A DNA stretch of 37,430 bases from a virus (taxonomy: Duplodnaviria > Heunggongvirae > Uroviricota > Caudoviricetes), in the IMG/VR virus record IMGVR_UViG_2585427768_000010; one strand, written 5' to 3'. Made by a program: the position numbers and the translations under genes. The notes below the pieces were generated by a model. That model saw nothing but the letters and a program-made list of their open reading frames with translations. It ran no database searches and had not been told where the DNA came from. How positions within the stretch are numbered: position 1 is the stretch's first letter; each line of letters starts with the position of its first letter. This document shows, in pieces, positions 1,003 through 33,517 of the stretch.

Positions 1003-1007
1003 TTTAG

Positions 1008-1355: not shown

Positions 1356-1384
1356 ATCATTACCTCAATTTAGCTCAAGTAAGA

Positions 1385-2035
1385 TTACAAATTAAAAAAT
1401 GCCCTAGAAATGACACCACCTACCAAAACCCCTACGCAGATAAAGAATATTATTTCTTTTGGATAAAGTCGGATTAATTCTGAAGCACGAAGTCGGACTT
1501 CTGGTAAGGTCGAACTCTCTGTGTGGCTTGATGCCGATTGTTGCTCTAACCACGACAATGCAGACTGTAACTGAGAACGAGTAAGATCGTTTAAACGTCC
1601 TGTACCGAAATTGATATGGCAATACCGCAGAAGTTTTTGTCGAAGTCCACAGTCTTCACTGTTACGTAGTAATAAACTTACAAGAGCCTTACAGGCATCA
1701 TGATCTTTACATCGCTCAAGCATTGCATGCAGAAAACTCTCCGCTGTTTTATATTGATTTACTGTCATATCATCAATACCAGTTACACCAATCTCCGCAT
1801 GTACTTTTTGCCAAATAATAAACGCTTCAGTATTGCTAGCTTCTGCAATAGCAGCAACCAAGCTATTTAGCTCCTTACGCTGAGCCTTAAGCAAAGGGCG
1901 ATCGTCATCATCATTATTCGAAGGGATTGCGATATTGACGGTCTGAGAACCATCATATCGCTCTATCTGAATATTCTTTTCGTGAAAATCACGCCCAGCA
2001 ACGCGATTGTTTGAACCGTTTGAGTTGACGGCCAT
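1385..2035 (-). CDS. Hypothetical protein with C-terminal hydrophobic anchor (216 aa)
   Basis: ORF with GGGAGGTG Shine-Dalgarno; C-terminal hydrophobic segment IIFFICVGVLVGGVISRAFF; N-terminal NNRVAGRDFHE motif also found at the C-terminus of the upstream repressor. Confidence 0.55.
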   Translation of the reverse strand: MAVNSNGSNNRVAGRDFHEKNIQIERYDGSQTVNIAIPSNNDDDDRPLLKAQRKELNSLVAAIAEASNTEAFIIWQKVHAEIGVTGIDDMTVNQYKTAESFLHAMLERCKDHDACKALVSLLLRNSEDCGLRQKLLRYCHINFGTGRLNDLTRSQLQSALSWLEQQSASSHTESSTLPEVRLRASELIRLYPKEIIFFICVGVLVGGVISRAFFNL

Positions 2036-2050
2036 GTCACCTCCCTACTA

Positions 2051-2455
2051 TCACCTACCCTTAGTTTCGTTATAGTCACGACCAGCGATACGGTTATTAC
2101 CACCAGAAATATTTAACTCACGTCCTGATGGCTGAGTTTCCTTTTCACTGATCGCACCTTTTAAAGCCCCAATCACCGCATTTTTCACATCTAACGAAGC
2201 TGCTCGAAAGCGAGTAATCAACTCCTGCTCATCATCGTTATAAGTTTCAGGTGAGTGAATTCCCAACACAACATACTGAACATCAAGGCCAAAACGAGAC
2301 AGCGCTGCCAAATACGCAGCATCAGGAAAGCTATCTCCTTTCTCATATCTAAGCTGAGTTAGCTTTTTGACTCCACCAATGTCGCTCATGGCAACTTGAC
2401 TAAGTCCCAATCTTTCCCTTTCCTCACGCAACCGCTGACCAATATCATTTTTCAT
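2051..2455 (-). CDS. XRE-family helix-turn-helix immunity repressor (C/CI analogue, 134 aa)
   Basis: N-terminal HTH (QRLREERERLGLSQVAMSDIGGVKKLTQLRYEKG); positioned divergently from the early operon and upstream of int as in P2 C. Confidence 0.7.
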   Translation of the reverse strand: MKNDIGQRLREERERLGLSQVAMSDIGGVKKLTQLRYEKGDSFPDAAYLAALSRFGLDVQYVVLGIHSPETYNDDEQELITRFRAASLDVKNAVIGALKGAISEKETQPSGRELNISGGNNRIAGRDYNETKGR

Positions 2456-2464
2456 ACAAAAACC

Positions 2465-2494
2465 TTGACAGGTATCTTTTTTGATACCAAAATG
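2465..2494 (+). promoter_or_regulatory. Candidate early promoter with embedded operator palindrome
   Basis: TTGACA at 2465-2470 followed directly by perfect inverted repeat GGTATC-N6-GATACC (2471-2488) in the repressor/early-operon divergent intergenic region. Confidence 0.35.
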
Positions 2495-2530
2495 ATTTCA
2501 CGAGCTATTAGATGATCACAATATACCACT

Positions 2531-2737
2531 ATGAAACAAGTTCTTCACGATACCAGATCACGCATTCCGCGTAACACCGCCACAGGTCCAAGACTGGCAC
2601 TTCGGCTGTCCCTCGAGGAGCGAGCCGTCATTGATGAAATGGCAGCTAAAGAACAACGCTCATCCTCTAACATGGCGCGCATGATCTTCCTTCGCGGCCT
2701 AGAGCTAACCCAGAAAGAACAAAACAAATCTTCCTGA
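2531..2737 (+). CDS. Small putative ribbon-helix-helix-like regulator (68 aa), first gene of early operon
   Basis: ORF; segment RLSLEERAVIDEMAAKEQRSSSNMARMIFLRGLE resembles RHH DNA-binding proteins; function inferred only. Confidence 0.4.
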   Translation: MKQVLHDTRSRIPRNTATGPRLALRLSLEERAVIDEMAAKEQRSSSNMARMIFLRGLELTQKEQNKSS

Positions 2738-2753
2738 TCAGGAGGCTAGTGGG

Positions 2754-2957
2754 ATGTCAGGTATAACCATCAATATCAATGTGAATGCCCCCTATGTATC
2801 CCTGCAGAAATATGCAGAGATAACAGGTATCCCTCTTAATACATGCAAAAAGATGTTGGCTGACGGTCGAATTATTATCCGACCCAAACGCGCCAAAATG
2901 GAAAAGCCTGAAGTAAACCTTGTGGCGATGTTAAAAGACGCTTTGGCTAACAGCTAA
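2754..2957 (+). CDS. Cox/Apl/AlpA-like small HTH protein (67 aa), putative excision/transcription regulator
   Basis: GGAGG Shine-Dalgarno; HTH-like YAEITGIPLNTCKKMLADGRI similar in pattern to P2 Cox (FAKLIGKSTGAVRRMIDKGKLPVI). Confidence 0.45.
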   Translation: MSGITININVNAPYVSLQKYAEITGIPLNTCKKMLADGRIIIRPKRAKMEKPEVNLVAMLKDALANS

Positions 2958-2978
2958 AACAATGAACAGAGCACCATC

Positions 2979-3329
2979 ATGAAAAAAAACGCTAATAATC
3001 CATACTCCAAATTTCGTAATGGCGTAGAACGCCATGTACACCACGTCGCTACCAGTGCATCACGTAGTAACAGTCGCTATAACCTGAACGAGACGCACGC
3101 AACACCGGATGGCCACGCTGTAAAACAAATCGGCGAGCATGCCTGGCTGATTGAGAAAGCTGGAATCGTGGTCCACAAATGCCCACGCAATCCGTTTACC
3201 GGAAACCGCATTTTTGCATTGAACTGCGGCGACAATCACTTCGGGCAGGATTTCACATTATACGAAGCACTTCGCACGGTTGATCGTCTGCTTCGCGGGC
3301 AAAGTTTTATTAAACAGGCTGATTTATAA
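2979..3329 (+). CDS. Hypothetical early protein (116 aa)
   Basis: ORF in early operon, co-oriented and tightly spaced. Confidence 0.5.
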   Translation: MKKNANNPYSKFRNGVERHVHHVATSASRSNSRYNLNETHATPDGHAVKQIGEHAWLIEKAGIVVHKCPRNPFTGNRIFALNCGDNHFGQDFTLYEALRTVDRLLRGQSFIKQADL

Positions 3330-3339
3330 CAGGTGCTTT

Positions 3340-3618
3340 ATGACCAAAGAGCATGCACAAGGTGTATTTATCCGTTTTATTGATTTTCGCGGTGAACTGT
3401 TATTACGCGCATCAGCCATTGACGGAGTTGTTCCATCCGAAAAAAACGCAGCTACTTACGTTTATCTGAACGGTACGCGCCTGACTGTGGAGCTTCCGTA
3501 CCAGACCGTACGAGAAATCATTAGCGAAGCTGAAAAGGCACGTCAGGTTAATGGCGATGAACCCTATATCGAAATTATTTGTATGGATTCAGAAGCTGAA
3601 ATTCAGAAAGCAGATTAA
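3340..3618 (+). CDS. Hypothetical early protein (92 aa from ATG 3340)
   Basis: ORF; the internal ATG at 3340 avoids overlap with the upstream gene. Confidence 0.45.
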   Translation: MTKEHAQGVFIRFIDFRGELLLRASAIDGVVPSEKNAATYVYLNGTRLTVELPYQTVREIISEAEKARQVNGDEPYIEIICMDSEAEIQKAD

Positions 3619-3629
3619 AGGGCGTTGTG

Positions 3630-3872
3630 ATGGGCAAAGAATATAAAACTCTCATTAACAAAGCACTTGAGCGTTTTTATTTTCGCTTAAGTGCATCAGG
3701 CGCTCATGCTGAACGTGCGGCCCGTGACTCATTGACCAGAGCAATCCGAAGTCTGTATGACGTGGCTTTTTACGCTGATGATCTGGATGCACTTAACGAA
3801 CTTTCCGAGCTGATCTATGCCGCAGAATGCGGGGAACATATTGAACCGTATAAGCTGGGAAATATCGCATGA
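3630..3872 (+). CDS. Hypothetical early protein (80 aa)
   Basis: ORF with ATG at 3630. Confidence 0.45.
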   Translation: MGKEYKTLINKALERFYFRLSASGAHAERAARDSLTRAIRSLYDVAFYADDLDALNELSELIYAAECGEHIEPYKLGNIA

Positions 3873-3982
3873 GTATATTTATCTCATGGCTTGTTCTGAT
3901 TATTTCGGTGGTCTGCGCCATTGGGATTATGCGAATTATTAATTCAGTAAAAAAGATTGAACGCTTTTTCACTGAAGAATAA
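3869..3982 (+). CDS. Small hydrophobic peptide (37 aa, MSIFISWLVLIISVVCAIGIMRIINSVKKIERFFTEE)
   Basis: Hand-translated; ATGA start/stop overlap with upstream gene; one predicted transmembrane helix; below the 60-aa cut-off of the supplied ORF track. Confidence 0.3.
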   Translation: MSIFISWLVLIISVVCAIGIMRIINSVKKIERFFTEE

Positions 3983-4068
3983 CCGCGCAAATAAGACCCC
4001 AGGTTAAATAAGAAAATGTGAAAACAATCCGCATTCGCGGAGGTATTCGCACACGCCAAGGAGGCGTA

Positions 4069-4272
4069 ATGGCAATTAAGCATTTTCCCGTCGTTCGTTT
4101 CACCTCCAAAGGACGTGAATACGAAGTTGACGAACGCCTGATTACCACAATCGACAAACACCGTTCAGAAAAGGATGCACATCACATCTATCTCACTGAC
4201 GGCACTTACTTTTGCGCCACCAACGTGGTGCAGGTAAATCTTATCAGACAGGTACAGGAGTCACGCAGATGA
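4069..4272 (+). CDS. Hypothetical early protein (67 aa from ATG 4069)
   Basis: AAGGAGG Shine-Dalgarno at 4055-4061 precedes ATG 4069. Confidence 0.45.
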   Translation: MAIKHFPVVRFTSKGREYEVDERLITTIDKHRSEKDAHHIYLTDGTYFCATNVVQVNLIRQVQESRR

Positions 4273-4514
4273 CCATTCTGGACTACATCGCTGCCAATCC
4301 GGGTTGTAGCGGTGGAGAAATCGCCGCAGCACTGAATACACCAACCACAACCATTAATGCGGAGCTACGCCGTCTCTGGCGCAGCGGTTCAGTCATAAGA
4401 AAAGAGCGCAAAACAGGCGGTCGCTTTTCTTATCAGGTAAACCCGATGCCGTTTGGGTGTAGCAACCCACTAACCCAGATGTTCAACCAGCTACTGAGGG
4501 AAATCAGAGCATGA
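4269..4514 (+). CDS. Putative winged-helix DNA-binding protein (81 aa)
   Basis: ATGA overlap with upstream gene; sequence MTILDYIAANPGCSGGEIAAALNTPTTTINAELRRLWRSGSV has HTH character. Confidence 0.45.
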   Translation: MTILDYIAANPGCSGGEIAAALNTPTTTINAELRRLWRSGSVIRKERKTGGRFSYQVNPMPFGCSNPLTQMFNQLLREIRA

Positions 4515-20554: not shown

Positions 20555-21022
20555 ATGCTTAAGACAAACAGTCTGCGAGAGTCCATGCTTCATGGGTGTC
20601 GGTGGTGCCAGGCTAATCCCGAGAAATTCACCATTTTCGTGGAGAGCGGCAACATTGAAACGACCGGAGAAGCGCCCTCGTTTGTTTACCGCTATCAGAT
20701 GGTGATGTTTGTCATGGATTACGCCGGAGAGCTGGACGACCTCACGCTGCCGCTGCTGGCGTGGTTATCCGAAAATCAGCCACAGTTGTTGCTCAATCCG
20801 GAGCGTAATCAGGACATCAAATTTTCTGCCGTTATCAATGACGATGACAGCGCCGATCTCCTGTTTACGCTCCCCCTGCGGGAACGCGTTCGCATCACGC
20901 GCAACAGTCAGGGCACACCGCAGGCAGAACACCTGCCGGAGCCAAAACCCCGTCTGCCCTCTTCCGAAGGCGACTGGTCGCATGTATTCCAGGATGTGAC
21001 GTGGGGTGAAAGCGATGGATAA
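20555..21022 (+). CDS. R: Tail completion protein R (155 aa)
   Basis: Size identical to P2 gpR and position before S. Confidence 0.8.
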   Translation: MLKTNSLRESMLHGCRWCQANPEKFTIFVESGNIETTGEAPSFVYRYQMVMFVMDYAGELDDLTLPLLAWLSENQPQLLLNPERNQDIKFSAVINDDDSADLLFTLPLRERVRITRNSQGTPQAEHLPEPKPRLPSSEGDWSHVFQDVTWGESDG

Positions 21023-21650
21023 GGCATTCACCAGCGTGGATGAAACCTTTGAGGCTATCCGCGACAGCCTGAATCAGCAGGCCATCAATAACATCGCCAG
21101 AAAGCTGGCACAGGATTTACGTCGCGCCCAGCAGGCACGTATCCGATCACAAAAAGCGCCGGACGGGACCGAATGGACACCACGCAGACGCCGCGTAACC
21201 CGGATACAGGAGCGCATTCGCTTTATCTGGAATAACGAAGCACGCACGCTGAAAAACTGGCATCACGACACGGGGAAATACGGGCGAACCATTACCGGGT
21301 GGGATGAGGATAAAAACAATATCCGCACGTTTTACCGGGATGACATCGACCGTTTTCTGGAAATACGCACCCGGCGCATCAACCAGGACAGCACAAAGCG
21401 CGTCCCCATGTTCGTAAAACTGCGCACCGCCCGCTACCTGAAAGCCCGTGCAGATGCCTCCGGTGTGACGGTGGGTTACAGCGGCGTGGCCGCACGTATT
21501 GCACGCGTTCATCAGTTCGGTGAGCGCGATCAGGTTGCGCCGGGCATTTTCACCGATTACCCGGTACGTGAGCTGTTGGGTATCAGCCAGGCAGATGAGC
21601 GCCTGATTTATAACACGGTGCTGGGCCGGATTGCGGAGGCTGTACGGTGA
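21015..21650 (+). CDS. S: Tail completion protein S
   Basis: Position; start uncertain (GTG 21006 or ATG 21015). Confidence 0.75.
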   Translation: MDKAFTSVDETFEAIRDSLNQQAINNIARKLAQDLRRAQQARIRSQKAPDGTEWTPRRRRVTRIQERIRFIWNNEARTLKNWHHDTGKYGRTITGWDEDKNNIRTFYRDDIDRFLEIRTRRINQDSTKRVPMFVKLRTARYLKARADASGVTVGYSGVAARIARVHQFGERDQVAPGIFTDYPVRELLGISQADERLIYNTVLGRIAEAVR

Positions 21651-22228
21651 GCGCAGAACTCATGCGACTGCTGAGCAACATCATCCGCACCGGGATCATC
21701 TCTGAAGTTGATGAGAAGTCCTGGCGCGTGCGCGTTCGCAGCGGCGAACTGGAAACAGGCTGGTTGCGCTGGAACACCACGCGCGCGGGAGCCTTCAATG
21801 TGTGGCTGCCGCCATCACCAGGCGAACAGGTGGTAATTGCCTGCATTGGCGGCAACCCGGAAACCGCCATGATAATTGGCAGCCTGTGGAGTGATGCCAG
21901 TCCGGCCCCCGGCAAAAGCCTGAAAGAAATCGTGGTCAGCGCGCCGGATGGCGCGGTGTTCCGCTACGACGCAGACGCTGGCGCACTGAGCGCCAGCGGC
22001 ATGAAAACAGCCACCCTGCAGGCATCCGTCAGCGTGACACTGGATACGCCCGTCGTGGAATGCACAAACCTTCTGAGAACAGCGACGCTTGACGTCACAA
22101 AAGGGGGAAAGATGTGCGGCAATATCACGCACAGCGGCGGCAACTTCACCTCAAACGGCATCACAGTGCATACGCATAAACACGGTGGTGTGAAAGGCGG
22201 CAGCGATTCGACAGGAGGCCCGCAGTGA
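21647..22228 (+). CDS. V: Baseplate spike protein V (193 aa)
   Basis: Position; C-terminal HTHKHGG apex motif typical of gpV spikes; start GTG 21647 or ATG 21662. Confidence 0.8.
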   Translation: MSAELMRLLSNIIRTGIISEVDEKSWRVRVRSGELETGWLRWNTTRAGAFNVWLPPSPGEQVVIACIGGNPETAMIIGSLWSDASPAPGKSLKEIVVSAPDGAVFRYDADAGALSASGMKTATLQASVSVTLDTPVVECTNLLRTATLDVTKGGKMCGNITHSGGNFTSNGITVHTHKHGGVKGGSDSTGGPQ

Positions 22229-22575
22229 CAACCCGCTACACAGGAATGAATCCGGACGGGACGGGAAACCTGAATGATATGGAGCACCTGAAACAGTCAG
22301 CCAGGGACATCCTGACCACCCCGCTGGCCAGCCGGGTTATGCGACGGGAATATGGCAGCCTTGTACCTGATTTGATTGACGAACCCATGAATAACACCAC
22401 GCGTCTGCAATGCATGAGTGCTGCCGTGATTGCGCTGACACGATGGGAACCCCGCATTGCCCTGGACGCCATCGACGTTGTCTGGAAAGCGGGAGGCCGC
22501 GCCGGGGTGACGCTGTCGGGCACTGTCATGCAGACCATGCAGAATGTTGAGTTAACCATCACGCTGAGGGAGTAA
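22225..22575 (+). CDS. W: Baseplate protein W (116 aa)
   Basis: Size and position. Confidence 0.8.
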   Translation: MTTRYTGMNPDGTGNLNDMEHLKQSARDILTTPLASRVMRREYGSLVPDLIDEPMNNTTRLQCMSAAVIALTRWEPRIALDAIDVVWKAGGRAGVTLSGTVMQTMQNVELTITLRE

Positions 22576-22578
22576 ATC

Positions 22579-23475
22579 ATGCCTGCTGTTGACCTTTCCC
22601 AGTTACCGGAACCCGCCATCATCGCGAAGCCTGATTTTGAGGCAATTCTGGCTGACACAAAGGCCATGATGATTGCGTCCTATCCTGCCGAACAGCGTGA
22701 AGCCGTCTCCGCCGCGCTGGAGCTGGAATCGGAACCCCTGAACGTTATCGCCCAGACAACAGCGTTTCGTGAAATGCTGTTACGCCAGCGGGTCAATGAG
22801 GGTGCACGCGCCTGCATGTTAAGCCACAGCGCCGGGACAGACCTGGACAACCTCGCGGGCAATATGAACACAAAGCGCCTGGTTATCACTCCGGCAACGG
22901 ATACCACCGACGCGGTGATGGAAAGCGACACATCGCTGAGACTGCGGGCGCAACGGGCGTATGACGGTCTGAGTGTTGCTGGCCCGTCAGGCGCATACGA
23001 GTATTTTGCACGCAGCGCCAGCGGTCTGGTACGCGACGCGCGAGCCATCAGCCCGTCTCCGGCCAACGTGACGGTTTCCATCCTGTCCACTGAAGGCGAC
23101 GGCACAGCAACGGAGGCGTTGCTTAATACCGTTCGCGCCGTTCTGAATGCAGAGGATACCCGCCCGGTGGCCGACCGCCTGACCGTACAGAGCGCCAGAA
23201 TCGTGACATGGCGGCTGAATGCAAAACTGTACTTTTACCCCGGCCCGGAATCCGAACCTATTCTGGCCGCGGCTGAATCGTCGTTCAGGAAGTGGCTGGC
23301 TGAGCAGGGGCTTATCGGTCAGGACGTGGCGTTGTCCGCCATTGCTGCCGCACTGCATGTGCACGGTGTGCAACGCGTGGAGATAATCGAACCCACACAG
23401 AATATGGCCATCAGCGACATACAGGCGGCGCGCTGTGAGTCATTCACCATCAGCGAAGGTGGACGCAATGAGTAA
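22579..23475 (+). CDS. J: Baseplate protein J (298 aa)
   Basis: Size and position. Confidence 0.8.
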   Translation: MPAVDLSQLPEPAIIAKPDFEAILADTKAMMIASYPAEQREAVSAALELESEPLNVIAQTTAFREMLLRQRVNEGARACMLSHSAGTDLDNLAGNMNTKRLVITPATDTTDAVMESDTSLRLRAQRAYDGLSVAGPSGAYEYFARSASGLVRDARAISPSPANVTVSILSTEGDGTATEALLNTVRAVLNAEDTRPVADRLTVQSARIVTWRLNAKLYFYPGPESEPILAAAESSFRKWLAEQGLIGQDVALSAIAAALHVHGVQRVEIIEPTQNMAISDIQAARCESFTISEGGRNE

Positions 23476-24076
23476 TTCGTTGTTACCACCATCAGCCAGC
23501 AATTTCATGCGTTGTGCCGAAGCCGTCGGAACACGCATTACAGACATTCCGGTAGACCTCAACACGCTGTGGTCGCCGGACACCTGCCCGGTGCATCTGC
23601 TGCCTTATCTCGCCTGGGCGTTTTCCGTTGACCGCTGGGATCGCAACTGGCCGGAAGAGACAAAGCGACAGGTGATTCGTGATGCATGGCTGATACACCG
23701 ACACAAAGGGACCATCAGCGCACTGCGAAGAGCCGTGGAGCCTCTCGGCTACCTGATTGAAGTAAAGGAGTGGTGGCAACTCAACGAGGAGCCGGGAACA
23801 TTTCGCATTGTTGTCGGAGTACTTGATCAGGGCATCACCGATGAAATGTATCAGGAACTTGAGCGCCTTATTGCGGATGCAAAACCAGTAAGTCGCCATC
23901 TGACGGGGCTGGCGATCAGCCTGAGTGTGAACGGAAAGATTTTCGTTGGTACGGGATGCTATCACGGCGATGCCCTGACGGTTTATCCCTACACCCCGGA
24001 GTCCATTATTGTCGAAGGGGATTATTTCCCTGCCCCGGCCATTCATTTAATTGATAATCTGAGAGTAAACGCATGA
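23468..24076 (+). CDS. I: Baseplate/tail protein I (202 aa from ATG 23468)
   Basis: Position; ATG overlaps J stop. Confidence 0.8.
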   Translation: MSNSLLPPSASNFMRCAEAVGTRITDIPVDLNTLWSPDTCPVHLLPYLAWAFSVDRWDRNWPEETKRQVIRDAWLIHRHKGTISALRRAVEPLGYLIEVKEWWQLNEEPGTFRIVVGVLDQGITDEMYQELERLIADAKPVSRHLTGLAISLSVNGKIFVGTGCYHGDALTVYPYTPESIIVEGDYFPAPAIHLIDNLRVNA

Positions 24077-25668
24077 CAGTGAAATACTACGCCATTCTGA
24101 CTAATCAGGGCGCGGCACGACTGGCTAACGCGACGATGCTCGGCAGTAAGCTGAATCTGACGCGAATGGCCGTTGGTGATGCAAATGGTGTGTTACCAAC
24201 ACCAGACCCTGCACAAACAAAACTGATTAACCAGAAACGCATTGCACCGCTGAATCTTCTGAGTGTTGACCCTAACAATCAGAGCCAGATTATTGCGGAG
24301 CAAATCATCCCTGAAAGCGAGGGTGGATTCTGGATCCGTGAGATTGGTCTTTATGATGATAAAGGTGTACTCATTGCGGTGGCAAACTGCCCGGAAACGT
24401 ACAAACCGCAGTTGCAGGAAGGCAGTGGACGCACCCAGACTATCCGCATGATTCTGGTTGTCACGAACACCGAAGCCATCACGCTGAAAATCGACCCGTC
24501 TGTGGTTCTGGCAACCCGCAAATATGTGGATGATAAAATCTCAAAGCACGAGCAGTCACGACGTCACCCGGACGCCTCGCTGACCGCAAAAGGCTTTGTT
24601 CAACTTAGCAGTGCCACGGACAGTCAATCAGAAACTGAGGCTGCCACGCCGAAGGCTGTGAAAATCGCGTATGATCTGGCCTGGGGAAAATACACAGCCC
24701 AGGATGCAACAACGACCCGTAAAGGGATCGTACAACTGAGCAGTGCCACCAACAGCACCTCTGAAACGCTGGCCGCCACACCAAAAGCCGTCAAGGCGGC
24801 ATACGACCTTGCAGCCGGCAAGGCCCCCGTCAGCCACACTCACCCATGGAGTCAGATAACGGGAGTGCCTGCTGCCTCGCTGACGGCAAAAGGCACCGTA
24901 CAACTGAGCAGTGCCATCAACAGCACGTCTGAAATACTGGCCGCCACACCGAAAGCGGTCAAGGATGCATACGATCTGGCAAACGGAAAACAACCGGCAG
25001 ATGCCACGCTCACTGCTCTGGCAGGACTTGCCACTGCAGCAGATCGGTTGCCTTATTTTACCGGAGCAGACCGCGCAGCGCTGGCAACCCTTACAGCTAT
25101 TGGTCGCGCTATTATCGCTAAGGGCAGTATAAAAGATGTCCTCAATTACCTTGGTTTGGGGGAAGGCTCTGCATTGCCTGTTGGTGTACCGGTTCCGTGG
25201 CCCACCGCCACACCGCCAGAAGGCTGGTTAAAGTGCGACGGGCGCGCCTTTACAAAAGAACAATATCCTGTTCTGGCCAGAGCCTACCCGACCCTCCGTC
25301 TTCCCGATTTACGCGGTGAGTTTATCCGTGGATGGGACGACGGGCGCAAAGTTGATACAGGACGTAAGTTGCTGTCCGCACAAGGGGCAACGCTGTTAAG
25401 AACAGCAATGCTGGATTATTATAACCAGGACACTACGGGAACCTCGGGGATAGTCGGCATGGGATTCAACAATGAAGATTCCATTACAGACCTTCGTGAG
25501 GGCAGCTTTAAAATGCCGGACGGGACAACATTCAGCGATCCTGTCGTGGCAATGTCAGACAATGGTATGCAGGCTACTATTCTGACCTCTATCAGAAGCG
25601 GGTATGCGAAGGGTATCACTGTCAGACCCCGTAGCATTGCACTTAATTACATTGTGAGGGCAGTTTAA
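24073..25668 (+). CDS. H: Tail fibre protein H (531 aa) with constant N-terminal 360 aa and variable C-terminal receptor-binding region
   Basis: Strong match to P2 gpH (AVGD, GGFW.RE.GLYDD.G.LIAVAN, SKHEQSRRHPDASLTAKGFVQLSSAT, DATLTALAGLATAADR, PYFTG); three internal LTAKG..QLSSA repeats. Confidence 0.9.
   Translation: MTVKYYAILTNQGAARLANATMLGSKLNLTRMAVGDANGVLPTPDPAQTKLINQKRIAPLNLLSVDPNNQSQIIAEQIIPESEGGFWIREIGLYDDKGVLIAVANCPETYKPQLQEGSGRTQTIRMILVVTNTEAITLKIDPSVVLATRKYVDDKISKHEQSRRHPDASLTAKGFVQLSSATDSQSETEAATPKAVKIAYDLAWGKYTAQDATTTRKGIVQLSSATNSTSETLAATPKAVKAAYDLAAGKAPVSHTHPWSQITGVPAASLTAKGTVQLSSAINSTSEILAATPKAVKDAYDLANGKQPADATLTALAGLATAADRLPYFTGADRAALATLTAIGRAIIAKGSIKDVLNYLGLGEGSALPVGVPVPWPTATPPEGWLKCDGRAFTKEQYPVLARAYPTLRLPDLRGEFIRGWDDGRKVDTGRKLLSAQGATLLRTAMLDYYNQDTTGTSGIVGMGFNNEDSITDLREGSFKMPDGTTFSDPVVAMSDNGMQATILTSIRSGYAKGITVRPRSIALNYIVRAV
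25139..25164. other. Invertase crossover site A (hix/gix-like, 26 bp), inside H
   Basis: Reverse complement reads TTCCCCCAAACC-AA-GGTAATTGAGGA; compare hixL TTCTTGAAAACC-AA-GGTTTTTGATAA. Confidence 0.5.
25151..25330 (+). repeat. Tail-fibre recombination repeat, copy A (direct orientation)
   Basis: About 170 bp nearly identical to inverted copies ending at 26767 and 27239. Confidence 0.8.
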
Positions 25669-26282
25669 TGAGTAACACTGCAGTTCTGGATGAAAACGGT
25701 ATCGCCACTGTAGCGGGCGATATCACTGTATATCACTATGACGAGGAAACCCGGGAATACACCTCATCCTCTGTGGAGTATCTCGCCCTTGGGGTGGGTA
25801 CTCCGGCACATTCGTGCGCCGATGCACCGCCGGAGGCAATTTCGGGTTACGTGGTTTGCCGGACTGCCACGCTGAACGGGTGGGAGCATGTGCCTGATCA
25901 CCGCGGCGAGACGGTATACAGCACGGAGAACGGTAACCCTGTTCTGATTACCCAACCGGGTGATTACCCGGCGGACACCACCACAAAACAGCCAGCCACG
26001 CCATGGGATACCTGGAACGGTGAGGCGTGGGTAACCGATACTGAACGGCAGCGAGCCGCAGAACTGGAGGTTGCCAGACAGCAACGCCAGCAACGGGTGA
26101 AACAGGCGATGGCGTCCGTCGATCTTATCAACCTCAAACTGCGTGCTGGTCGCAGTCTGACACCAGAAGAAACGGCAAAACTGAACGCCGTGCTGGATTA
26201 TATCGACGAGCTGAACGCACTGGATATCAGCACGGCACCTGAAATCAGCTGGCCGGAAGCGCCACTGGCACTTGCCAGTTGA
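25668..26282 (+). CDS. G: Tail fibre assembly chaperone G (204 aa)
   Basis: Position after H with 1-nt overlap; typical tail-fibre-assembly C-terminus. Confidence 0.8.
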   Translation: MSNTAVLDENGIATVAGDITVYHYDEETREYTSSSVEYLALGVGTPAHSCADAPPEAISGYVVCRTATLNGWEHVPDHRGETVYSTENGNPVLITQPGDYPADTTTKQPATPWDTWNGEAWVTDTERQRAAELEVARQQRQQRVKQAMASVDLINLKLRAGRSLTPEETAKLNAVLDYIDELNALDISTAPEISWPEAPLALAS

Positions 26283-26288
26283 ACGGTA

Positions 26289-26753
26289 TCACGCCGCCCT
26301 CACGATATAGTTAAACGCGATATTGCGGGGGCGGGTTATGTTAAAGAATGCTCCGTTTAATTCGGCTTTTGCGCGACTGTTTGTTCCACCCAGTATTGCG
26401 TACCACAAATAATCGCTACGGTAATTCCCCGCAAACACCTTATCGCCGCCATAGTCAATATTATTTCCGTTACTCATGTACGAGATATCAAGCGCAGAAT
26501 CGTTATCGTCATGACCGCCGACCAGTGTACCTTTCTGCCATGAAAGCAACTTACGCCCCTCGTCAATCTTGCGCCCGTCGTCCCATCCACGGATAAACTC
26601 ACCGCGTAAATCGGGAAGACGGAGGGTCGGGTAGACTCTGGCCAGAACAGGATATTGTTCTTTGGTGAACGTAGCTCCGTTGCACTGTAACCAGCCTGCT
26701 GGCGGTGTGGCGGTGGGCCATGGAACCGGTACACCAACAGGCAATGCAGAGCC
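26289..26753 (-). CDS. Alternative tail-fibre C-terminal cassette 2 (promoterless, about 155 aa; expressed only after inversion)
   Basis: Begins inside inverted repeat copy B in frame with the H constant region (LGEGSALPVGVPVPWPTATPP); ends RPRNIAFNYIVRAA like H. Confidence 0.65.
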   Translation of the reverse strand, partial: GSALPVGVPVPWPTATPPAGWLQCNGATFTKEQYPVLARVYPTLRLPDLRGEFIRGWDDGRKIDEGRKLLSWQKGTLVGGHDDNDSALDISYMSNGNNIDYGGDKVFAGNYRSDYLWYAILGGTNSRAKAELNGAFFNITRPRNIAFNYIVRAA

Positions 26754-26767
26754 TTCCCCCAAACCAA
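26580..26767 (-). repeat. Tail-fibre recombination repeat, copy B (inverted)
   Basis: Reverse complement matches 25151-25330 with a diverged central patch. Confidence 0.8.
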
Positions 26768-26779
26768 CGTTTTTATGCC
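26754..26779. other. Invertase crossover site B
   Basis: TTCCCCCAAACC-AA-CGTTTTTATGCC. Confidence 0.5.
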
Positions 26780-27225
26780 GCCCTTACGATATAATTAAAG
26801 GCAATATTACGAGGACGGTTTTCATTAGCTGTTGGCACGACACGAGAGGCGTCGAATCCAAGGTCATCGGTTTTGTCTATAGTAGTTGTGTTATTCGGCA
26901 TTCTCGCTGATCGTGTTCCTGCATCGTAAAAAGCCCCTCTGATTGCATCAAAAGACATACCGATCCCGCCATCTGCGAATCCCTCAATATTTCTTATTGC
27001 ATCCCCCTGTGAAGATAATAATTGTCGCCCGGCATCCACACCACGTCCGTCATCCCAGCCACGAATAAATTCACCGCGTAAATCGGGAAGACGGAGGGTC
27101 GGGTAGGCTCTGGCCAGAACAGGATATTGTTCTTTTGTAAAGGCGCGCCCGTCGCACTTTAACCAGCCTTCTGGCGGTGTGGCGGTGGGCCACGGAACCG
27201 GTACACCAACAGGCAATGCAGAGCC
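26773..27225 (-). CDS. Alternative tail-fibre C-terminal cassette 3 (promoterless, about 150 aa)
   Basis: Begins inside inverted repeat copy C in frame; different variable region; ends RPRNIAFNYIVRAA. Confidence 0.65.
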   Translation of the reverse strand, partial: GSALPVGVPVPWPTATPPEGWLKCDGRAFTKEQYPVLARAYPTLRLPDLRGEFIRGWDDGRGVDAGRQLLSSQGDAIRNIEGFADGGIGMSFDAIRGAFYDAGTRSARMPNNTTTIDKTDDLGFDASRVVPTANENRPRNIAFNYIVRAA

Positions 27226-27239
27226 TTCCCCCAAACCAA
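27060..27239 (-). repeat. Tail-fibre recombination repeat, copy C (inverted)
   Basis: Reverse complement nearly identical to 25151-25319. Confidence 0.8.
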
Positions 27240-27251
27240 CGTTTTCGTTTT
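27226..27251. other. Invertase crossover site C
   Basis: TTCCCCCAAACC-AA-CGTTTTCGTTTT, close to hix core AAACCAAGGTTTT. Confidence 0.5.
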
Positions 27252-27305
27252 TATCCCTACCTATACCAACTCTGTATTTTTCACGAAACAAAGAGGATGT
27301 TTTTT

Positions 27306-27905
27306 ATGCAAATTGGCTATATTCGTGTGTCAACAAACGACCAGAACACGGATTTACAACGCAATGCACTGAACTGCGCAGGATGTGAACTGATTTTTGA
27401 AGATAAAATCAGCGGAACGAAATCAACCAGACCGGGATTGAAAAAACTGCTCAGAACGCTATCAGAAGGAGATACGCTGGTTGTCTGGAAGCTGGACAGA
27501 CTGGGCAGAAGTATGAAACACCTGATCACGCTTATTGAGGAATTGCGGGAAAAAGGTGTTAATTTCCGTAGTCTGACGGACAGCATTGACACGTCAACAC
27601 CCATGGGGCGTTTCTTTTTTCACGTCATGGGGGCTTTAGCCGAAATGGAACGTGAATTAATTGTAGAGCGTACACTGGCCGGGCTGGCAGCAGCACGCGC
27701 ACAAGGACGCATTGGCGGACGTCGCCCGAAGTTGACAAAAGAACAACACGAGCAAATAGCGAGGCTGATTAAAAACGGTCATGACAGGAAACAACTGGCG
27801 ATCATTTACGACATCGGCATATCGACGATTTATCGTTATCACCCTGTAGGCGATATACAGGCTGAAGAAACAACCAGACAGACTCAGGAAAATGAAAACC
27901 GCTAA
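27306..27905 (+). CDS. Serine DNA invertase, Hin/Gin/Cin/Pin family (199 aa)
   Basis: N-terminal resolvase catalytic domain (IGYIRVSTNDQ with catalytic Ser, VWKLDRLGRS) and C-terminal HTH (ISTIYRY); AGAGGA Shine-Dalgarno before ATG 27306. Confidence 0.9.
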   Translation: MQIGYIRVSTNDQNTDLQRNALNCAGCELIFEDKISGTKSTRPGLKKLLRTLSEGDTLVVWKLDRLGRSMKHLITLIEELREKGVNFRSLTDSIDTSTPMGRFFFHVMGALAEMERELIVERTLAGLAAARAQGRIGGRRPKLTKEQHEQIARLIKNGHDRKQLAIIYDIGISTIYRYHPVGDIQAEETTRQTQENENR

Positions 27906-27921
27906 TCTGACCATTAGCGGT
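27892..27921. terminator. Bidirectional hairpin terminator between invertase and U
   Basis: AAAACCGCTAAT-ctgacc-ATTAGCGGTTTT perfect 12-bp inverted repeat. Confidence 0.55.
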
Positions 27922-27931
27922 TTTGCGTTAA

Positions 27932-28426
27932 TCAAAACAGCCCTTTAACGGAGCTGGCCGCGCTGTTAAGAGATGATGTCACTTTATCTTTGAAGCCGGA
28001 CAGCATATCGCTGAACGATGAGGATTGCAGGCGCTCCCGCAAATCCTCATCACAGCGTTCAAGAGTCAGTGAAAATTCTATCTTTTTCGCCTTACCATAG
28101 CGATCAAACTCGGAACGGGTCGTATTCGTTTCAGTCAGTACATACATGCCGTAAATCTGCCCGACACCATCAATCAGAGGCCAGGGGCGTCCTGTATATG
28201 CCTGCGTGGTCAGCAACGAAAGCGACACTTCGCCACCTGTAATTTCAGGATAAAGCACGCCGGAAAGCACAATGCGATCATCACCTGCGCCGATATACTG
28301 CCAGCCTGCTGAACGGTTAACGCGTTCATTTTTCACATGCCGCCAGCTTTTGTTTTGCTGTAACTGCTGATGCGGCAGCGTGCGCAGCTCAAAAACAAAC
28401 ATGCCGTAGATCATCATCATGGCCAT
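27932..28426 (-). CDS. U: Tail protein U (164 aa)
   Basis: Position immediately downstream of tape measure; size like P2 gpU. Confidence 0.8.
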   Translation of the reverse strand: MAMMMIYGMFVFELRTLPHQQLQQNKSWRHVKNERVNRSAGWQYIGAGDDRIVLSGVLYPEITGGEVSLSLLTTQAYTGRPWPLIDGVGQIYGMYVLTETNTTRSEFDRYGKAKKIEFSLTLERCDEDLRERLQSSSFSDMLSGFKDKVTSSLNSAASSVKGLF

Positions 28427-28432
28427 GACTCC

Positions 28433-31249
28433 TCAATCTTTATCGTAAAAACTGCCCCGCCCGGCACGGGCGCGCCGTTCCATTTCTGCCCTAACCATTT
28501 CACCGACCAGTTTCGCCAGTTCGCGGGGATTCTGTGTAACAATGTTATGCAGATGAACATGAATTTCACCGCCAAATCCGGAGGCAACAGGCTCCCGGTT
28601 ACGGGAAGTTGCAGGAGCTGATGCCACTGGCGATCGTATGGCCTCCGCCACCGGGCGGGAGCTGGCCGCAACAACAGGGACCAGCGCCGGAGGCAGCGGA
28701 GCCGGAACCACGGGTGTGATATTAATTGCGGGGGCAGGCTTACTGACCTGCGCAATCTTCCGCTCCTGCCACTCCCCACGAACAGCAAGTGCGCGGGGCA
28801 GGTTCTTAAAGACAATATCGCCGGGGCCAATGCGTTTTTTCGTCTCATCAACCAGCTTACCTGTGTTATCAGCAATTTTGCTGAGTCTGCGCAGCGTCCC
28901 GGTATTGCTGTCTGTGAGCGGTTTGTTGTCTTTGGGTTTATCACCTCCGGTGCCATTGCCATTTTCCACAGGCTTCGGCGGATTGATTTTCGCCAGGTCC
29001 CCCTGAAGTAAGGCAACCTTGTCCTGAAGAATGGCCGCACGCTGTGCGTCTTCGATTTTCTTGCGCGCCCTTTCCGCTTCATCCGGAAGGACGCCAAGTT
29101 TTTCAAGTATCCACGCCAGCGTATCCAGTAGCATTTTTGCAGGTGTCAGAACAAGTTGTAACGCACCGCCAAGAACGTTACCGAATATCTCGCCAGCACT
29201 GGTACATTTATCCAGCGTTTCCTTGCTGGACTCCATCGGTGACAACAGCGATTTAAACCAGTTAAACACCTGGCTGATCCCGCTTCCGATTGCGTCAAAA
29301 ACAGGACCAAACCGTTCAAAGGTTTCGCGCAACGGGGTCAGCCTTTCCATAATCCCGCTGAACACCCCGGCAAAAAATGCCCTGATGGGATCCCAGTATT
29401 TCCAGATGAGAACGGCAGCTCCGGCAAGCGCAGCCACGATAAGACCGACCGGACTGAACAACGCCCCGATAGCGCCCCCCAGTAACGAAACGGAACCCGT
29501 CACCATTCCCCATAGTGCTGGCAGGAGTCTGACAGCATTCATTGAACCGGTCAGGAGGGAAAAGCCAAGACGCAGTTTTGCCAGCGGGCCAGCAAGCACA
29601 CCAATAGCCAGCGACAACGAGCCAACCGTTGCAGTCATTGCCAGCAACGCACCGCCTGCTATCAGTAGCTGGCGCGTCAGTACCGGATGGGCCTGCGCCA
29701 GCGAGGTGATTTTTTCAAGCACCCGCGTGAGCCACTGCGTGACAGAACGCAGCGGACCGTCAACCAGATCACTGATGCGAATACGAAGACCTTCCCATGC
29801 GCTGTCGAGATTTTTCAGGTCCCCATCAAGATTATCGGCCATTACTTTTGCGACGCGATCGGCCTCTCCCCTTGCCCCCTGCAATTCTCTGGTCAGTTTT
29901 TGCAGCTCTCCTGAACCAGCCGCAGCAACAAGCGTCTGCAAACCAACGAACGCCTCTTCTCCGGCGATGTCCTTGAAGAAGGAAACCTGGTCCACCTGTC
30001 CGTATTTTTGTGTCGCCTTATAGAGATCAAGCAGCACATCCTCCATCGGGCGCATTTTGCCTCTGGCGTCAGCAACTGACACCCCCAGCTCTTTCAGCGC
30101 ATCAGCCGCAGCTTTTGGCGGTGATGCAAGGCGGGACAGACTTGCGCGCATGGCCGTACCAGCATCGCTTCCACGAAGACCATTATTGGCAAGCATCCCG
30201 GCCATGGCCGCCGCTTCTTCAAGACTGATACCAAGTTTTGCGGCAACCGGACCGGTATACTTCATGGTTTCGCCCAGCGCGCGTAAATCAGTATTGGTCC
30301 GGGTGAATGCCGCTGTCAGCGTATCGCCAACCCGGTCCATTTGATCGGCTGTCAGGTTGAACTGTGTGAGGATATTGGAGCCTATATCCGCCGTCTCGCC
30401 GAGTTCGACGCCACCTGCCAGCGCCATATTAAGAACACCGGGCAATGCGGCCTGAATGGCCTGCGGAGTAAAACCAGCCATTGCCAGAAAGCTCTGCCCA
30501 CTGGCGGCATCACTCGCAGTAAACTGTGTTTCAGAGCCAAGTTTTAACGCCTGCTCACGCAGCGCCTTAAACTGCGGGCTGTTTTTGTCGATTCGCGTCA
30601 GTGCCTGAACGCGGGACATCTCTTTGCCGAACCCGATCGCAGGCTGCAAAAAACGCCCGGCAGCATAGCCGCCCGCCGCTGCCGCACCAATTGCCAGCGC
30701 ACCACCTGTTTTCAGTTTTCCCGCGGTTTCCTGCGCGCGCGAATACCGCTCACGCGCCCGCGTTACACGCGCAAGCGCCTGCCGTTCGCGTTCAAGCTGG
30801 TTGTTGTACTGTTCGGTGCGTCTGATGGCCTGCTGGATGGTGTTATCGCTGCCTGTCAGGGAAATGCCGTGGCGTTTCAGCTCTCCGCCAAGCTCCCGCA
30901 TTTTCTGAATTTCCCGTGTGCGCGATTCATTCAGGCGTTCAAGCCGGGTGCTTAACTGCTGCATCAGCTTTTGTTGTTTTTCGCTGAGCACTGTACCCGT
31001 GCGTTGTAACTGATTAAGGGCGTTAAGCTGGCGTCGTGCTTTCACGATACCCGCATCCGCTTTACTGACAGCGTCGCGGGCGCGCTCAAATGATCGCGCC
31101 TGACGCTCGAGATTTTTGATCGCCCCCTGCGTTCGCTGGATGGAGTCACCAAACTGCCCCATCAGGCGGCGGGCGTTTTCGGCAGGCCGGGTCAGCCTGT
31201 CAACGGCGCTGAAAGCGACCCGGATATCAAGAGTCTTCATTGTCTGCAT
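28433..31249 (-). CDS. T: Tail tape measure protein T (938 aa)
   Basis: Long, Ala/Gly/Leu-rich coiled-coil-like ORF downstream of E/E'. Confidence 0.9.
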   Translation of the reverse strand: MQTMKTLDIRVAFSAVDRLTRPAENARRLMGQFGDSIQRTQGAIKNLERQARSFERARDAVSKADAGIVKARRQLNALNQLQRTGTVLSEKQQKLMQQLSTRLERLNESRTREIQKMRELGGELKRHGISLTGSDNTIQQAIRRTEQYNNQLERERQALARVTRARERYSRAQETAGKLKTGGALAIGAAAAGGYAAGRFLQPAIGFGKEMSRVQALTRIDKNSPQFKALREQALKLGSETQFTASDAASGQSFLAMAGFTPQAIQAALPGVLNMALAGGVELGETADIGSNILTQFNLTADQMDRVGDTLTAAFTRTNTDLRALGETMKYTGPVAAKLGISLEEAAAMAGMLANNGLRGSDAGTAMRASLSRLASPPKAAADALKELGVSVADARGKMRPMEDVLLDLYKATQKYGQVDQVSFFKDIAGEEAFVGLQTLVAAAGSGELQKLTRELQGARGEADRVAKVMADNLDGDLKNLDSAWEGLRIRISDLVDGPLRSVTQWLTRVLEKITSLAQAHPVLTRQLLIAGGALLAMTATVGSLSLAIGVLAGPLAKLRLGFSLLTGSMNAVRLLPALWGMVTGSVSLLGGAIGALFSPVGLIVAALAGAAVLIWKYWDPIRAFFAGVFSGIMERLTPLRETFERFGPVFDAIGSGISQVFNWFKSLLSPMESSKETLDKCTSAGEIFGNVLGGALQLVLTPAKMLLDTLAWILEKLGVLPDEAERARKKIEDAQRAAILQDKVALLQGDLAKINPPKPVENGNGTGGDKPKDNKPLTDSNTGTLRRLSKIADNTGKLVDETKKRIGPGDIVFKNLPRALAVRGEWQERKIAQVSKPAPAINITPVVPAPLPPALVPVVAASSRPVAEAIRSPVASAPATSRNREPVASGFGGEIHVHLHNIVTQNPRELAKLVGEMVRAEMERRARAGRGSFYDKD

Positions 31250-31495
31250 TCCCGCTGCGAAGTGCCGCCCGCTCGCGCCAGCTAACCACTTCGCCGGGCG
31301 TCATCATGAAGATTTCGGCGGGCGACCAGTTAAAAATGGCGGCAATATCCGCCACCAGATCTTCGATGTGCTCAAAGCACACCAGGGTGATTACGCTGCC
31401 GTCTCCTGCACGCTCTTCGCGCCAGAGTCTGGCTCGCTCATAAAATTTACAGCCACAGCGCACAACCGAATAAAATCGCGTGACGACATTTTTTT
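31227..31495 (-). CDS. E' extension in the -1 frame (tape-measure chaperone frameshift product E+E')
   Basis: -1 frame opens at the A7 run (minus-strand 31489-31495) inside E and ends overlapping the T start, as for P2 E/E'. Confidence 0.55.
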
Positions 31496-31765
31496 AATCA
31501 TCACTTCATCCAGTCGTGGCGAGGTCACGCGAGGCAACAGCGTGAACATGGTATCCGCTTTCAGATTCAGCACATCAGACAGCGACAGACCACGCAGGGA
31601 TCCCGCCTGCTCAATAGCCCCGGTGATCTCCACATATGTGATTTTTTCGCCACCACGCTCAATTGGCCGGGAAAGTTTTACACCACGTTCGACAGCCATA
31701 TCCTCACCTGCCGTCACATCATCCGCTACGGTGTTATTCCGGGTTTCAGTATCGATATCTTTCAT
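31391..31765 (-). CDS. E: Tail assembly chaperone E (124 aa in zero frame)
   Basis: AAGGAGA Shine-Dalgarno; position between FII and T; contains slippery A7. Confidence 0.75.
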   Translation of the reverse strand: MKDIDTETRNNTVADDVTAGEDMAVERGVKLSRPIERGGEKITYVEITGAIEQAGSLRGLSLSDVLNLKADTMFTLLPRVTSPRLDEVMIKKMSSRDFIRLCAVAVNFMSEPDSGAKSVQETAA

Positions 31766-31820
31766 CAGTTGTCTCCTTTTCAGTCAGAGGCGACGCACTG
31801 CGCCGCCTGCATATTACTTA

Positions 31821-32333
31821 TCAGCCAAGCCCAAGCGCGGAACGAATGCGGTCAGGCACAATGTCCTTGCCGTCCTTCCGGTAGATGTGGTTCAACAGGT
31901 CGATTTCCAACAGCGGGCGATCGTTAACGCTCAGCTTGTAGTAGGTGTTTTTGACAGCGTAAGTGTGTGATGTGGCTTCGCCCTGTTTGGCCTCCCCCAT
32001 ATCAATTTCCGTCACACGCCCGCGCATCTCGATTTCATACAGATCGCTTTCTGCATCGGTGTAGTATTCACCCGCAAAACGCAGCAGCGTGCCGTCAATC
32101 GTGCCGCCATATTTAAGGAACAGCGCACGAACAGCTCCCCCCATAACAAAACTCGCATCAAGCGCGGAGTCGTCCAGACCGAGATCAATACTTACCGCCC
32201 CCATCATGCCACCACCACGATAGCTGTCGGTTTTGCGCGTCAGTTTGGGCGGCGTGACGGACGTCACCTTACCCACTTCGTTTTCACCATCCACAAACAG
32301 CGTAAAAAAGCGAAGATGTTTTGGTACAGCCAT
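31821..32333 (-). CDS. FII: Major tail tube protein FII (170 aa)
   Basis: Size and position after sheath. Confidence 0.85.
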   Translation of the reverse strand: MAVPKHLRFFTLFVDGENEVGKVTSVTPPKLTRKTDSYRGGGMMGAVSIDLGLDDSALDASFVMGGAVRALFLKYGGTIDGTLLRFAGEYYTDAESDLYEIEMRGRVTEIDMGEAKQGEATSHTYAVKNTYYKLSVNDRPLLEIDLLNHIYRKDGKDIVPDRIRSALGLG

Positions 32334-33517
32334 CAGGCACCTCCCAGCACCGCAAATGCGGGACCAAAGAATTCATCAGTAAACGACTGGTAAAGCTCCA
32401 TGTCTTCCAGCGGGGGAACAGGCGTATATTTGTAGCGAATACGCACGCGCCCCTGACGTAAATTCGTGGTGCCGTTATCCACCACGTCATACCAGCACGA
32501 CGCCCCAATCAGTTTCCCGGCAGTAACCAGTGAATCCAGTTTTGCCCTGATGGCACTGATAACATCTTTCACGTTCGCAGGCGTCAGTGGACTGTCGATG
32601 GTTTCAAACTGCGCTTCCGCAATTGAATCAGCCAGCACCTGTGCGGTTCGGGTATACACCTCAAAGATGTAGGCGTTCGTTTCCGGTGTGCGGTTGCCCC
32701 AGAAGCGGAACCCGTTGCGACGAATAATGGTCGTGATTTCTTTGTTGTTGAGGCTATTGGCATCGCTGTCTTCGGCCTGCAACGACCAGAACACATGCCT
32801 GGACATCCCCAGCACATTTTTAACCGGAACGTTGGACAGTGATTTGTGCCATCCCTGCTCATGGTCAATGTACGCACGAAGGCCGCACGCATAGGCAGGC
32901 GCGGGGAACGTTTCGTTTTTGCCACTTTTCGGGTTGTAGGCGATGAAGTCCGGCCATAAGAGCATCACCTCACGTTCGTTGAATTTCTGGCGGTAGGTAA
33001 TCGCCTCAGCCATCGTGTTACAGCCGTGACATGAGGCATACACAAACGCGCGCAGTTTACCCGCAATCACGCACAGGGATTTTGTCACCGCCTCCGTGTC
33101 CAGCTCCGGCGCGGCCAGAATACGCGGACGGTATCCGATGCTTTCATCCTGCTCTGCAACAAGCAGCGCATACATCCCCGTATAGCTGCCGTCAGATTCA
33201 GAACCACCGATAACCAGTTGATCCTGCGTCTTTCCGTCTTCTTCTTTGTGTTCAGCCACGCGAACGACGATCACCTTTGTGCTCACCTGGTCTGCGATGG
33301 CCTTAAGCGCACGATAAAGCGTCCCCGTTGTCCCGCATTTTCCCAGCACGTCATTGACGCGGGTCAGCAGTGTGGGCTTGTTCAGCGGGAACAGCTTCGC
33401 GTCCGCATCATCCGCCGTTGCCACGATACCGATAACGCTGGAATCAACATCGTTAATCGCTGTTACCAGGTCGGTATTTTCCGTAACACGGGCACCATGA
33501 AAACGAGTTTCACTCAT
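32333..33517 (-). CDS. FI: Tail sheath protein FI (394 aa)
   Basis: Size and position. Confidence 0.85.
   Translation of the reverse strand: MSETRFHGARVTENTDLVTAINDVDSSVIGIVATADDADAKLFPLNKPTLLTRVNDVLGKCGTTGTLYRALKAIADQVSTKVIVVRVAEHKEEDGKTQDQLVIGGSESDGSYTGMYALLVAEQDESIGYRPRILAAPELDTEAVTKSLCVIAGKLRAFVYASCHGCNTMAEAITYRQKFNEREVMLLWPDFIAYNPKSGKNETFPAPAYACGLRAYIDHEQGWHKSLSNVPVKNVLGMSRHVFWSLQAEDSDANSLNNKEITTIIRRNGFRFWGNRTPETNAYIFEVYTRTAQVLADSIAEAQFETIDSPLTPANVKDVISAIRAKLDSLVTAGKLIGASCWYDVVDNGTTNLRQGRVRIRYKYTPVPPLEDMELYQSFTDEFFGPAFAVLGGA

Follow-up and report, generated by a model that had tools for sequence, protein, structure and literature searches.

The window, a stretch of 37,430 nt of viral DNA (IMG/VR record IMGVR_UViG_2585427768_000010), has structural genes that are 96% identical to those of P88, PhiR44_2 and Chuche and, judged from its sequence, is a P2-type E. 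coli prophage of the P88 / Xuanwuvirus group. The locus described here encodes a tail fibre, a Tfa chaperone, two silent fibre tip cassettes and a DNA invertase:

24073-25668, plus strand: tail fibre gene H, with Phage_tail_fib, three Phage_fiber_2 repeats and Collar
24073..25150, plus strand: constant part of H, consisting of the N-terminal domain and the Phage_fiber_2 repeats (PF12571, PF03406), which ends at a crossover site
25668..26282, plus strand: G, the sole Tfa gene (Caudo_TAP, PF02413, 98.8 bits), within the invertible segment and convergent with cassette Hv2
26289-26762, minus strand: open reading frame of cassette Hv2 (Pfam Collar)
26773-27291, minus strand: open reading frame of cassette Hv3 (Pfam Collar)
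27306..27905, plus strand: serine DNA invertase of the Gin/Hin/Cin/Pin family (PF00239, 174 bits, and PF02796)
27895..27924: terminator-like hairpin, bidirectional, whose 12-bp stem is followed, on the minus strand, by a run of T

Upstream of H, the H-G operon carries the baseplate genes J and I. The ATG of G overlaps the H stop codon (TAATG), which is the stop of H::Hv1, and it is only for Hv1 that a tip and the Tfa gene are adjacent. The invertase has an N-terminal catalytic domain and a C-terminal HTH domain, as expected of a small serine recombinase, and matches the Mu Gin structures 3UJ3 and 4M6F over residues 1-185 (E = 1e-91). The terminator-like hairpin has the invertase gene on one side and the convergent gpU-T tail operon on the other.

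The FI-FII-E-T-U tail operon (27932-33517) is inverted relative to P2 and converges on the V-W-J-I-H-G operon (20555-26282), and the invertible region and the invertase gene sit between the two. The number of Phage_fiber_2 repeats in the H shaft (24589-24989 in the window) varies among sister prophages, and H has 531 aa in the window versus 570-574 aa in the related loci L010 and L004. This variation in repeat number is probably driven by direct repeats spaced 132 and 168 nt. An open reading frame of 109 aa antisense to G (25764-26093) is rich in Arg and Cys and without homology, and was judged spurious.

Crossover sites, isomers and related loci

The locus has three crossover sites, one in H and one in front of each silent cassette:

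25139..25164, plus strand: site L, in H (TCCTCAATTACC TT GGTTTGGGGGAA), 26 bp and resembling Mu gix
26754..26779, minus strand: site R1 (reverse complement GGCATAAAAACG TT GGTTTGGGGGAA), whose outer half contains the Hv3 stop codon
27226..27251, minus strand: site R2 (reverse complement AAAACGAAAACG TT GGTTTGGGGGAA), 26 bp

The inner half-site GGTTTGGGGGAA and the TT core are common to L, R1 and R2, and R1 and R2 have the opposite orientation to L. The gix site read from the Mu genome (locus L014) is TTATCCAAAACC TC GGTTTACAGGAA, the inner half of which matches that of L, R1 and R2 at 9 of 12 positions. As in the Din family, the sites are inverted, imperfectly symmetric 26-bp sequences with a 2-bp core, and both orientations are found. 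Repeats of 229-240 nt that are 90% complementary to H 25148-25387 begin right after the core, which places them within the invertible DNA, where they code for the conserved portion of each tip. These repeats (about 235 nt) are not the crossover substrate.

The invertase would exchange DNA at the three 26-bp sites, L in H and R1 and R2 before the silent cassettes. Its gene and site content identify the locus as a site-specific inversion switch of the Gin family, with three sites and four isomers. In common with multiple-inversion systems it has more than two sites, several isomers and alternative 3' ends, here with three sites and four states predicted from the sites:

State 0: H::Hv1-G, with G in sense
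State 1: H::Hv2; G and Hv1 face the opposite way
State 2: H::Hv3-Hv2; here too G and Hv1 are inverted
State 3: H::Hv3-Hv1-G; Hv2 is inverted, and a sense G follows the expressed gene at a distance of about 0.5 kb

The inversions measure 1.6 and 2.1 kb in the window, and state 3 is reached from the present arrangement by two inversions. Only Hv2 never has a sense G downstream, because it converges on G inside the same segment. An earlier note on this DNA had placed G on the non-transcribed strand after inversion; this is correct for both single inversions, and it leaves out the fourth isomer, H::Hv3-Hv1-G, where G is in sense.

All four kinds of isomer are present among sequenced E. coli genomes. 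A junction-specific search of 5,426 complete genomes found H::Hv1 in 327, H::Hv2 in 103 and H::Hv3 in 22, frequencies of isomers in prophages that are uninformative on virion yield. Hv2 is the expressed tip in about one fifth of the carrier genomes. The junction-specific queries were about 740 nt long; queries of 1,400 nt are unsuitable, since up to 82% of such a query can be covered by the wrong isomer on the opposite strand. Locus L004 is in state 1, with Hv2 fused to H, and L010 and L017 are in state 2, while L021, L022 and the P1-like plasmid locus L009 are of the state-3 type. Hv3 is fused to H in L010 and L009. The outer half-sites are redistributed as predicted, and L004 and L010 are joined exactly at L. 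A scan of genome contigs with G alone returned one short contig.

Locus L015 (NZ_OZ040035.1, 1754-3366) lacks Hv3 and is 472 nt shorter, which is the spacing of R1 and R2 (26766-27238 in the window), and the outer half-site of R2 abuts Hv2. It looks like the expected product of recombination between the direct sites R1 and R2 or between their collars. A span of 2,579 nt, as in the Hv3 deletion, also occurs in several genomes (H30, H31, H33). The third cassette of L017 is not the same as that of the window, the prophages being otherwise identical. Locus L003 (NZ_OZ040015.1, 3754-5845) has two identical copies of Hv3, no Hv2 and a G with a replaced 3' end (221 aa), and has arisen either by aberrant recombination or through mis-assembly where isomers were mixed in the population.

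The plasmid pKY1497_2 (L009, 5253-7776) is a P1-like phage-plasmid with four cassettes that carries the same Hv1-G-Hv2 module as the window (25153-26765). G and Hv2 are 100% identical between the two, the Hv1 insert is 99.3% identical and the Cin-like invertase 74%. The presence of this module in L009 means that the whole invertible module travels between P2-like and P1-like phages. A homologue of the switch in Salmonella Typhi (L007; LT904852.1, 4896-8223) looks decayed. Its Hv2-like cassette no longer has a stop codon and its frame continues across the next site, the following cassette is truncated, and H (277 aa) is without the closing collar strand. The largest tip set in the survey of Tfa loci described below is that of L029 (IMGVR_UViG_2778261533_000005, 636-4352), where six collar-type tips follow one another and are accompanied by one invertase and a single Typhi-type Tfa.

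Collar-type tips and exchange of sequence between them

The resident tip and the two cassettes have the same architecture, and two stretches within their collars bear on exchange between them:

25153..25668, plus strand: resident tip Hv1, with a collar (nt 1-235), a variable insert and the C-terminal strand RPRSIALNYIVRAV (Pfam Collar; alignment to T4 gp37, T4 gp12 and 9CUY)
26289..26765, minus strand: cassette Hv2, with collar, insert and RPRNIAFNYIVRAA (Pfam Collar), without promoter or start codon of its own
26773..27237, minus strand: cassette Hv3, with collar, insert and RPRNIAFNYIVRAA (Pfam Collar), likewise promoterless
25153..25319, plus strand: conversion tract, where the collars of Hv1 and Hv3 (27071-27237, minus strand) are identical in sequence over their first 167 nt
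26664..26681, minus strand: diverged patch in the Hv2 collar, LQCNGATFT versus LKCDGRAFT, with 9 differences in 18 nt

The Collar domain (PF07484) scores 57-60 bits in all three tips. The variable inserts, counted from the end of the collar repeat to the closing strand, are of about 80 aa in Hv1, 70 aa in Hv2 and 62 aa in Hv3, and all three cassettes end in a near-identical stretch of 14 aa, RPR(N/S)IA(F/L)NYIVRA(A/V). Each cassette would thus encode a complete collar-type receptor-binding tip, in which an N-terminal scaffold of about 78 aa and the closing strand RPRNIAFNYIVRA enclose the insert of 62-79 aa.

A profile built from 45 cassette homologues was searched against solved structures. 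It aligned to the short tail fibre 9CUY over hmm positions 10-155, and with both of its ends to T4 gp37 (2XGF; collar residues 27-128 and the C-terminal …KNIAFNYIVRL) and T4 gp12 (1OCY; residues 11-74 and …RPWNISLNYIIK). Since RPRNIAFNYIVRA aligns to the terminal strand in the mature proteins 2XGF, 1OCY and 9CUY, it is the closing strand of the collar and is kept in mature fibres. An AlphaFold2 monomer model of cassette 2, made from the 45-sequence alignment, has a mean pLDDT of 50.5, with residues 54-150 below 50.

The dN/dS ratio is 0.18 for Hv3 against its homologue in L002, and 0.07 for Hv2 against its Salmonella Typhi homologue, with synonymous sites saturated in the insert. These values indicate that the cassettes are under purifying selection and are functional tips, not relics. 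Hv2 is retained in P2-like, P1-like and Typhi elements. The Hv3 frame is open for 54 nt past R2 (27238-27291), up to a TTG at 27291, and the extended frame has a RefSeq entry as a 172-aa 'phage tail protein' (WP_225380832.1). This annotation is probably an artefact of a cassette without a start codon.

The diverged patch, which had been noticed earlier in the repeat copy of Hv2, is real and clustered. When the collar copies are aligned, cassettes 1 and 2 differ at 15 positions in the first 200 nt, and 9 of these are crowded into 18 nt (permutation p = 2e-5). The three other loci with an aligned Hv2 collar (L001, L004 and L009) have the same patch, and L009 is 100% identical over the whole Hv2 collar.

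Better evidence for past gene conversion, which the same note had proposed, comes from Hv1. Over 235 nt, Hv1 and Hv3 differ at 22 positions, none of them before nt 168 (P = 8.5e-14 for this distribution). Hv1 equals Hv3 over the first 167 nt in the window and in L015, and the sister prophages L003, L004 and L010 have eight Hv1-specific variants in this stretch. L019 and L021 have Hv2 variants at nt 45 and 68 (L019 also at nt 131), without the patch. The Hv3-like, Hv1-specific and Hv2-like tracts across these loci indicate that short tracts have repeatedly been copied between cassettes. Gene conversion would homogenise the approximately 235 nt of DNA that encode the scaffold.

One chaperone gene for several tips

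The resident H C-terminus is the only one followed by a Tfa gene, and none lies behind cassettes 2 and 3, as had been claimed. The G stop codon is separated by 6 nt from the stop of cassette 2, and the two cassettes by 10 nt, which leaves no space for a further gene. A search with five different Tfa proteins (phmmer --max) against the six-frame open reading frames of at least 40 aa in the window matched G and nothing else. The cryptic chaperone gene near the cassettes that would have overturned the claim is thereby absent from all six frames.

Related tips do occur next to a Tfa gene elsewhere. In phage SKA5 the Hv3 insert is 100% identical and is directly followed by an overlapping Tfa gene of its own, and in L002 an Hv3-like tip is followed by a Tfa gene that overlaps it in the same way; the Tfa of L002 and SKA5 is 53% identical to G. 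In L043 an Hv2-like tip is directly upstream of G.

The survey of 80 IMG/VR loci that carry a G-family Tfa included 16 with two to six collar-type tips, and each of the 16 has exactly one G-family Tfa, as does the window, the seventeenth case. Among the 80 loci, a second Tfa (of the tfaB type, with a different N-domain) occurs only where a second collar-type tip was not detected; the alternative tip there presumably belongs to a different class, in line with the annotation of L002 and SKA5. One Tfa copy per collar-tip switch is therefore the rule and not an oddity of the window. This single-chaperone rule for collar-type tips is not discussed in the searchable papers.

The Tfa N-domain binds the C-terminal region of the fibre, and the conserved C-domain drives trimerisation, according to the summary of North et al. 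2019 in PMC9608196. In 243 pairs of loci, G N-domains that are at least 90% identical stand beside tip inserts that are less than 50% identical. The converse pattern occurs in none of the pairs among the surveyed loci. The N-domain being the fibre-binding part, the 243 discordant pairs argue that G recognises what the collar tips share. From these gene neighbourhood statistics we infer that G is generic to the collar class, which would account for a single copy per switch regardless of the number of cassettes. G, or possibly no Tfa whatever, would then be enough for every tip.

On balance it is somewhat probable that such a generic G serves all the tips and is supplied independently of orientation, or in trans, when it is inverted. 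In the two isomers with G antisense to the late operon, a low-level supply of G would be required, candidate sources being a promoter that escaped detection, read-through, or, during lytic replication, sister copies of the genome with the segment the other way round. Otherwise, the tips of the G-inverted isomers would assemble without G.

A sigma-70 scan of 24900-28500 for a promoter of inverted G gave one match versus 3.1 expected. A perfect TGT-N12-ACA dyad, the motif of the P2 Ogr-type activator, is found at 27273-27290 between R2 and the invertase start, with its centre about 55 nt from R2. As a late promoter it was discounted, and the match is taken as chance, with six such dyads in the window versus 8.3 expected and none at the other late-operon starts. 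Read-through from the convergent FI-T-U operon was also considered, and is opposed by the terminator-like hairpin at 27895-27924. It is impossible in phage 503046 (L001), and so not a general route, because the switch there is at the prophage end, where host genes flank the invertase.

The fuller proposal, that one collar-generic Tfa in invertible DNA serves up to six tips and works even when antisense to the only known late promoter, is put forward tentatively. A Tfa that works when antisense would therefore have an orientation-independent supply, either from a promoter that is internal or divergent, or through complementation in trans among isomeric copies in one cell. To our knowledge, orientation-independent supply of a chaperone has not been described for any fibre inversion system.

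A second explanation, possible though less likely than a generic G, is that Hv2 and Hv3 fold and trimerise without Tfa, by means of host chaperones or of the collar scaffold alone, and that G is required only or mainly by the adjacent Hv1. The Hv1 insert is longer than that of Hv2 or Hv3, in agreement with this, and collar-type fibres such as T4 gp12 are not known to use a Tfa-family protein. A PilV-collar fusion in a pilus shufflon is likewise described with no mention of a Tfa (PMC9881135). None of the ten Hv2-like cluster members surveyed has its tip next to G, and the same is true of the Hv2 cluster of the window; H::Hv2 is the state of 103 genomes, and the Hv2 cassette is under strong purifying selection, yet can never be co-transcribed with G. 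However, a G dedicated to its neighbour would be expected to track the adjacent insert, and the N-domains of the 243 discordant pairs do not. The translationally overlapping Tfa behind the identical Hv3 insert in SKA5 and behind the Hv3-like tip in L002, and the Hv2-like tip directly upstream of G in L043 also count against Tfa-independence.

It is improbable that the G-inverted isomers are low-yield or non-productive, the switch then being partly an on/off phase variation in which full fibres come only from H::Hv1-G and H::Hv3-Hv1-G. A tip that is never productive would be expected to decay, yet Hv2, which is never with a sense G, has the dN/dS of 0.07 against Salmonella Typhi and has been kept in all three types of element, P2-like, P1-like and Typhi. 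In favour of low-yield states are the antisense orientation of G with respect to the late operon in both G-inverted states, the lack of an alternative promoter in the scanned region, and the restoration of a sense G behind Hv3 in the fourth isomer. The earlier suggestion that the conserved tail acts in each cassette as an intramolecular chaperone signal in place of G is hardly credible, although the near-identical 14-aa motif at the end of all three would fit it. The motif is the last beta-strand of the collar and is retained in T4 gp37, T4 gp12 and 9CUY as solved in their mature form by crystallography and cryo-EM. It is 14 aa long versus about 150 aa for known autocleaving domains, of which Pfam detects none (Peptidase_S74 type) in the cassettes, and it ends a resident tip that still carries G.

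In temperate phages, tailocins and phage-plasmids, host range is determined by invertible tail fibre switches, and it is usually assumed in fibre retargeting that each tip requires its cognate chaperone. If one Tfa serves all collar-type tips, or if none is needed, the tips are plug-in specificity modules that can be swapped without a chaperone. The locus is suited to the question of chaperone need, since Hv2 is never co-transcribed with G and is nevertheless conserved and expressed in about one in five carriers. For such tips, the rule of one chaperone per switch is a modest point, though one that can be tested.

Comparison with known inversion systems

The locus belongs to a known, experimentally documented type of switch. 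A P2-like prophage of EPEC E2348/69 has three inverted repeats and inversions of about 1.8 and 2.2 kb that were validated by PCR (Goldberg et al. 2014, PMC4272514). Four variants coexist, with three C-termini of one protein; neither the chaperone gene nor gene conversion is discussed (PMC4272514). The described design of this 'shufflon-like' switch is the same as in the window, a P2-like element with three partly homologous repeats and two overlapping inversions.

The Mu G segment (Gin/gix), the P1 C segment (Cin/cix) and P88 share with the window a Gin-family invertase just outside the segment and a 26-bp site inside the fibre gene, at the boundary of its constant and variable parts. In Mu, P1 and P88 there are two sites, and each tip has its own Tfa within two symmetric Sv-U / U'-Sv' pairs, whereas the window has three sites, three collar-type tips and one Tfa. 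The contrast that had been drawn with the Sv-U / Sv'-U' pairs of Mu therefore stands, since Mu (L014) has an own Tfa for each tip, as does P88. The Mu/P1 arrangement, in which every alternative tip is followed by its own Tfa, is not found in the window. P88 is the type phage of the genus and has the order H-Tfa > < Tfa'-H', unlike the window.

The Min system of p15B and P1-like phage-plasmids is like the window in having more than two sites, several fibre 3' ends and one Din-family invertase. The p15B Min system has six crossover sites, and the window three. The tips of the window resemble T4 gp37 and gp12 in their N-terminal collar segment and extreme C-terminal strand (…NIAFNYIVR), with the specificity insert between the two. 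The T4 proteins differ in that their inserts are longer, that gp57A is used, with gp38 in addition for gp37, and that no DNA inversion is involved.
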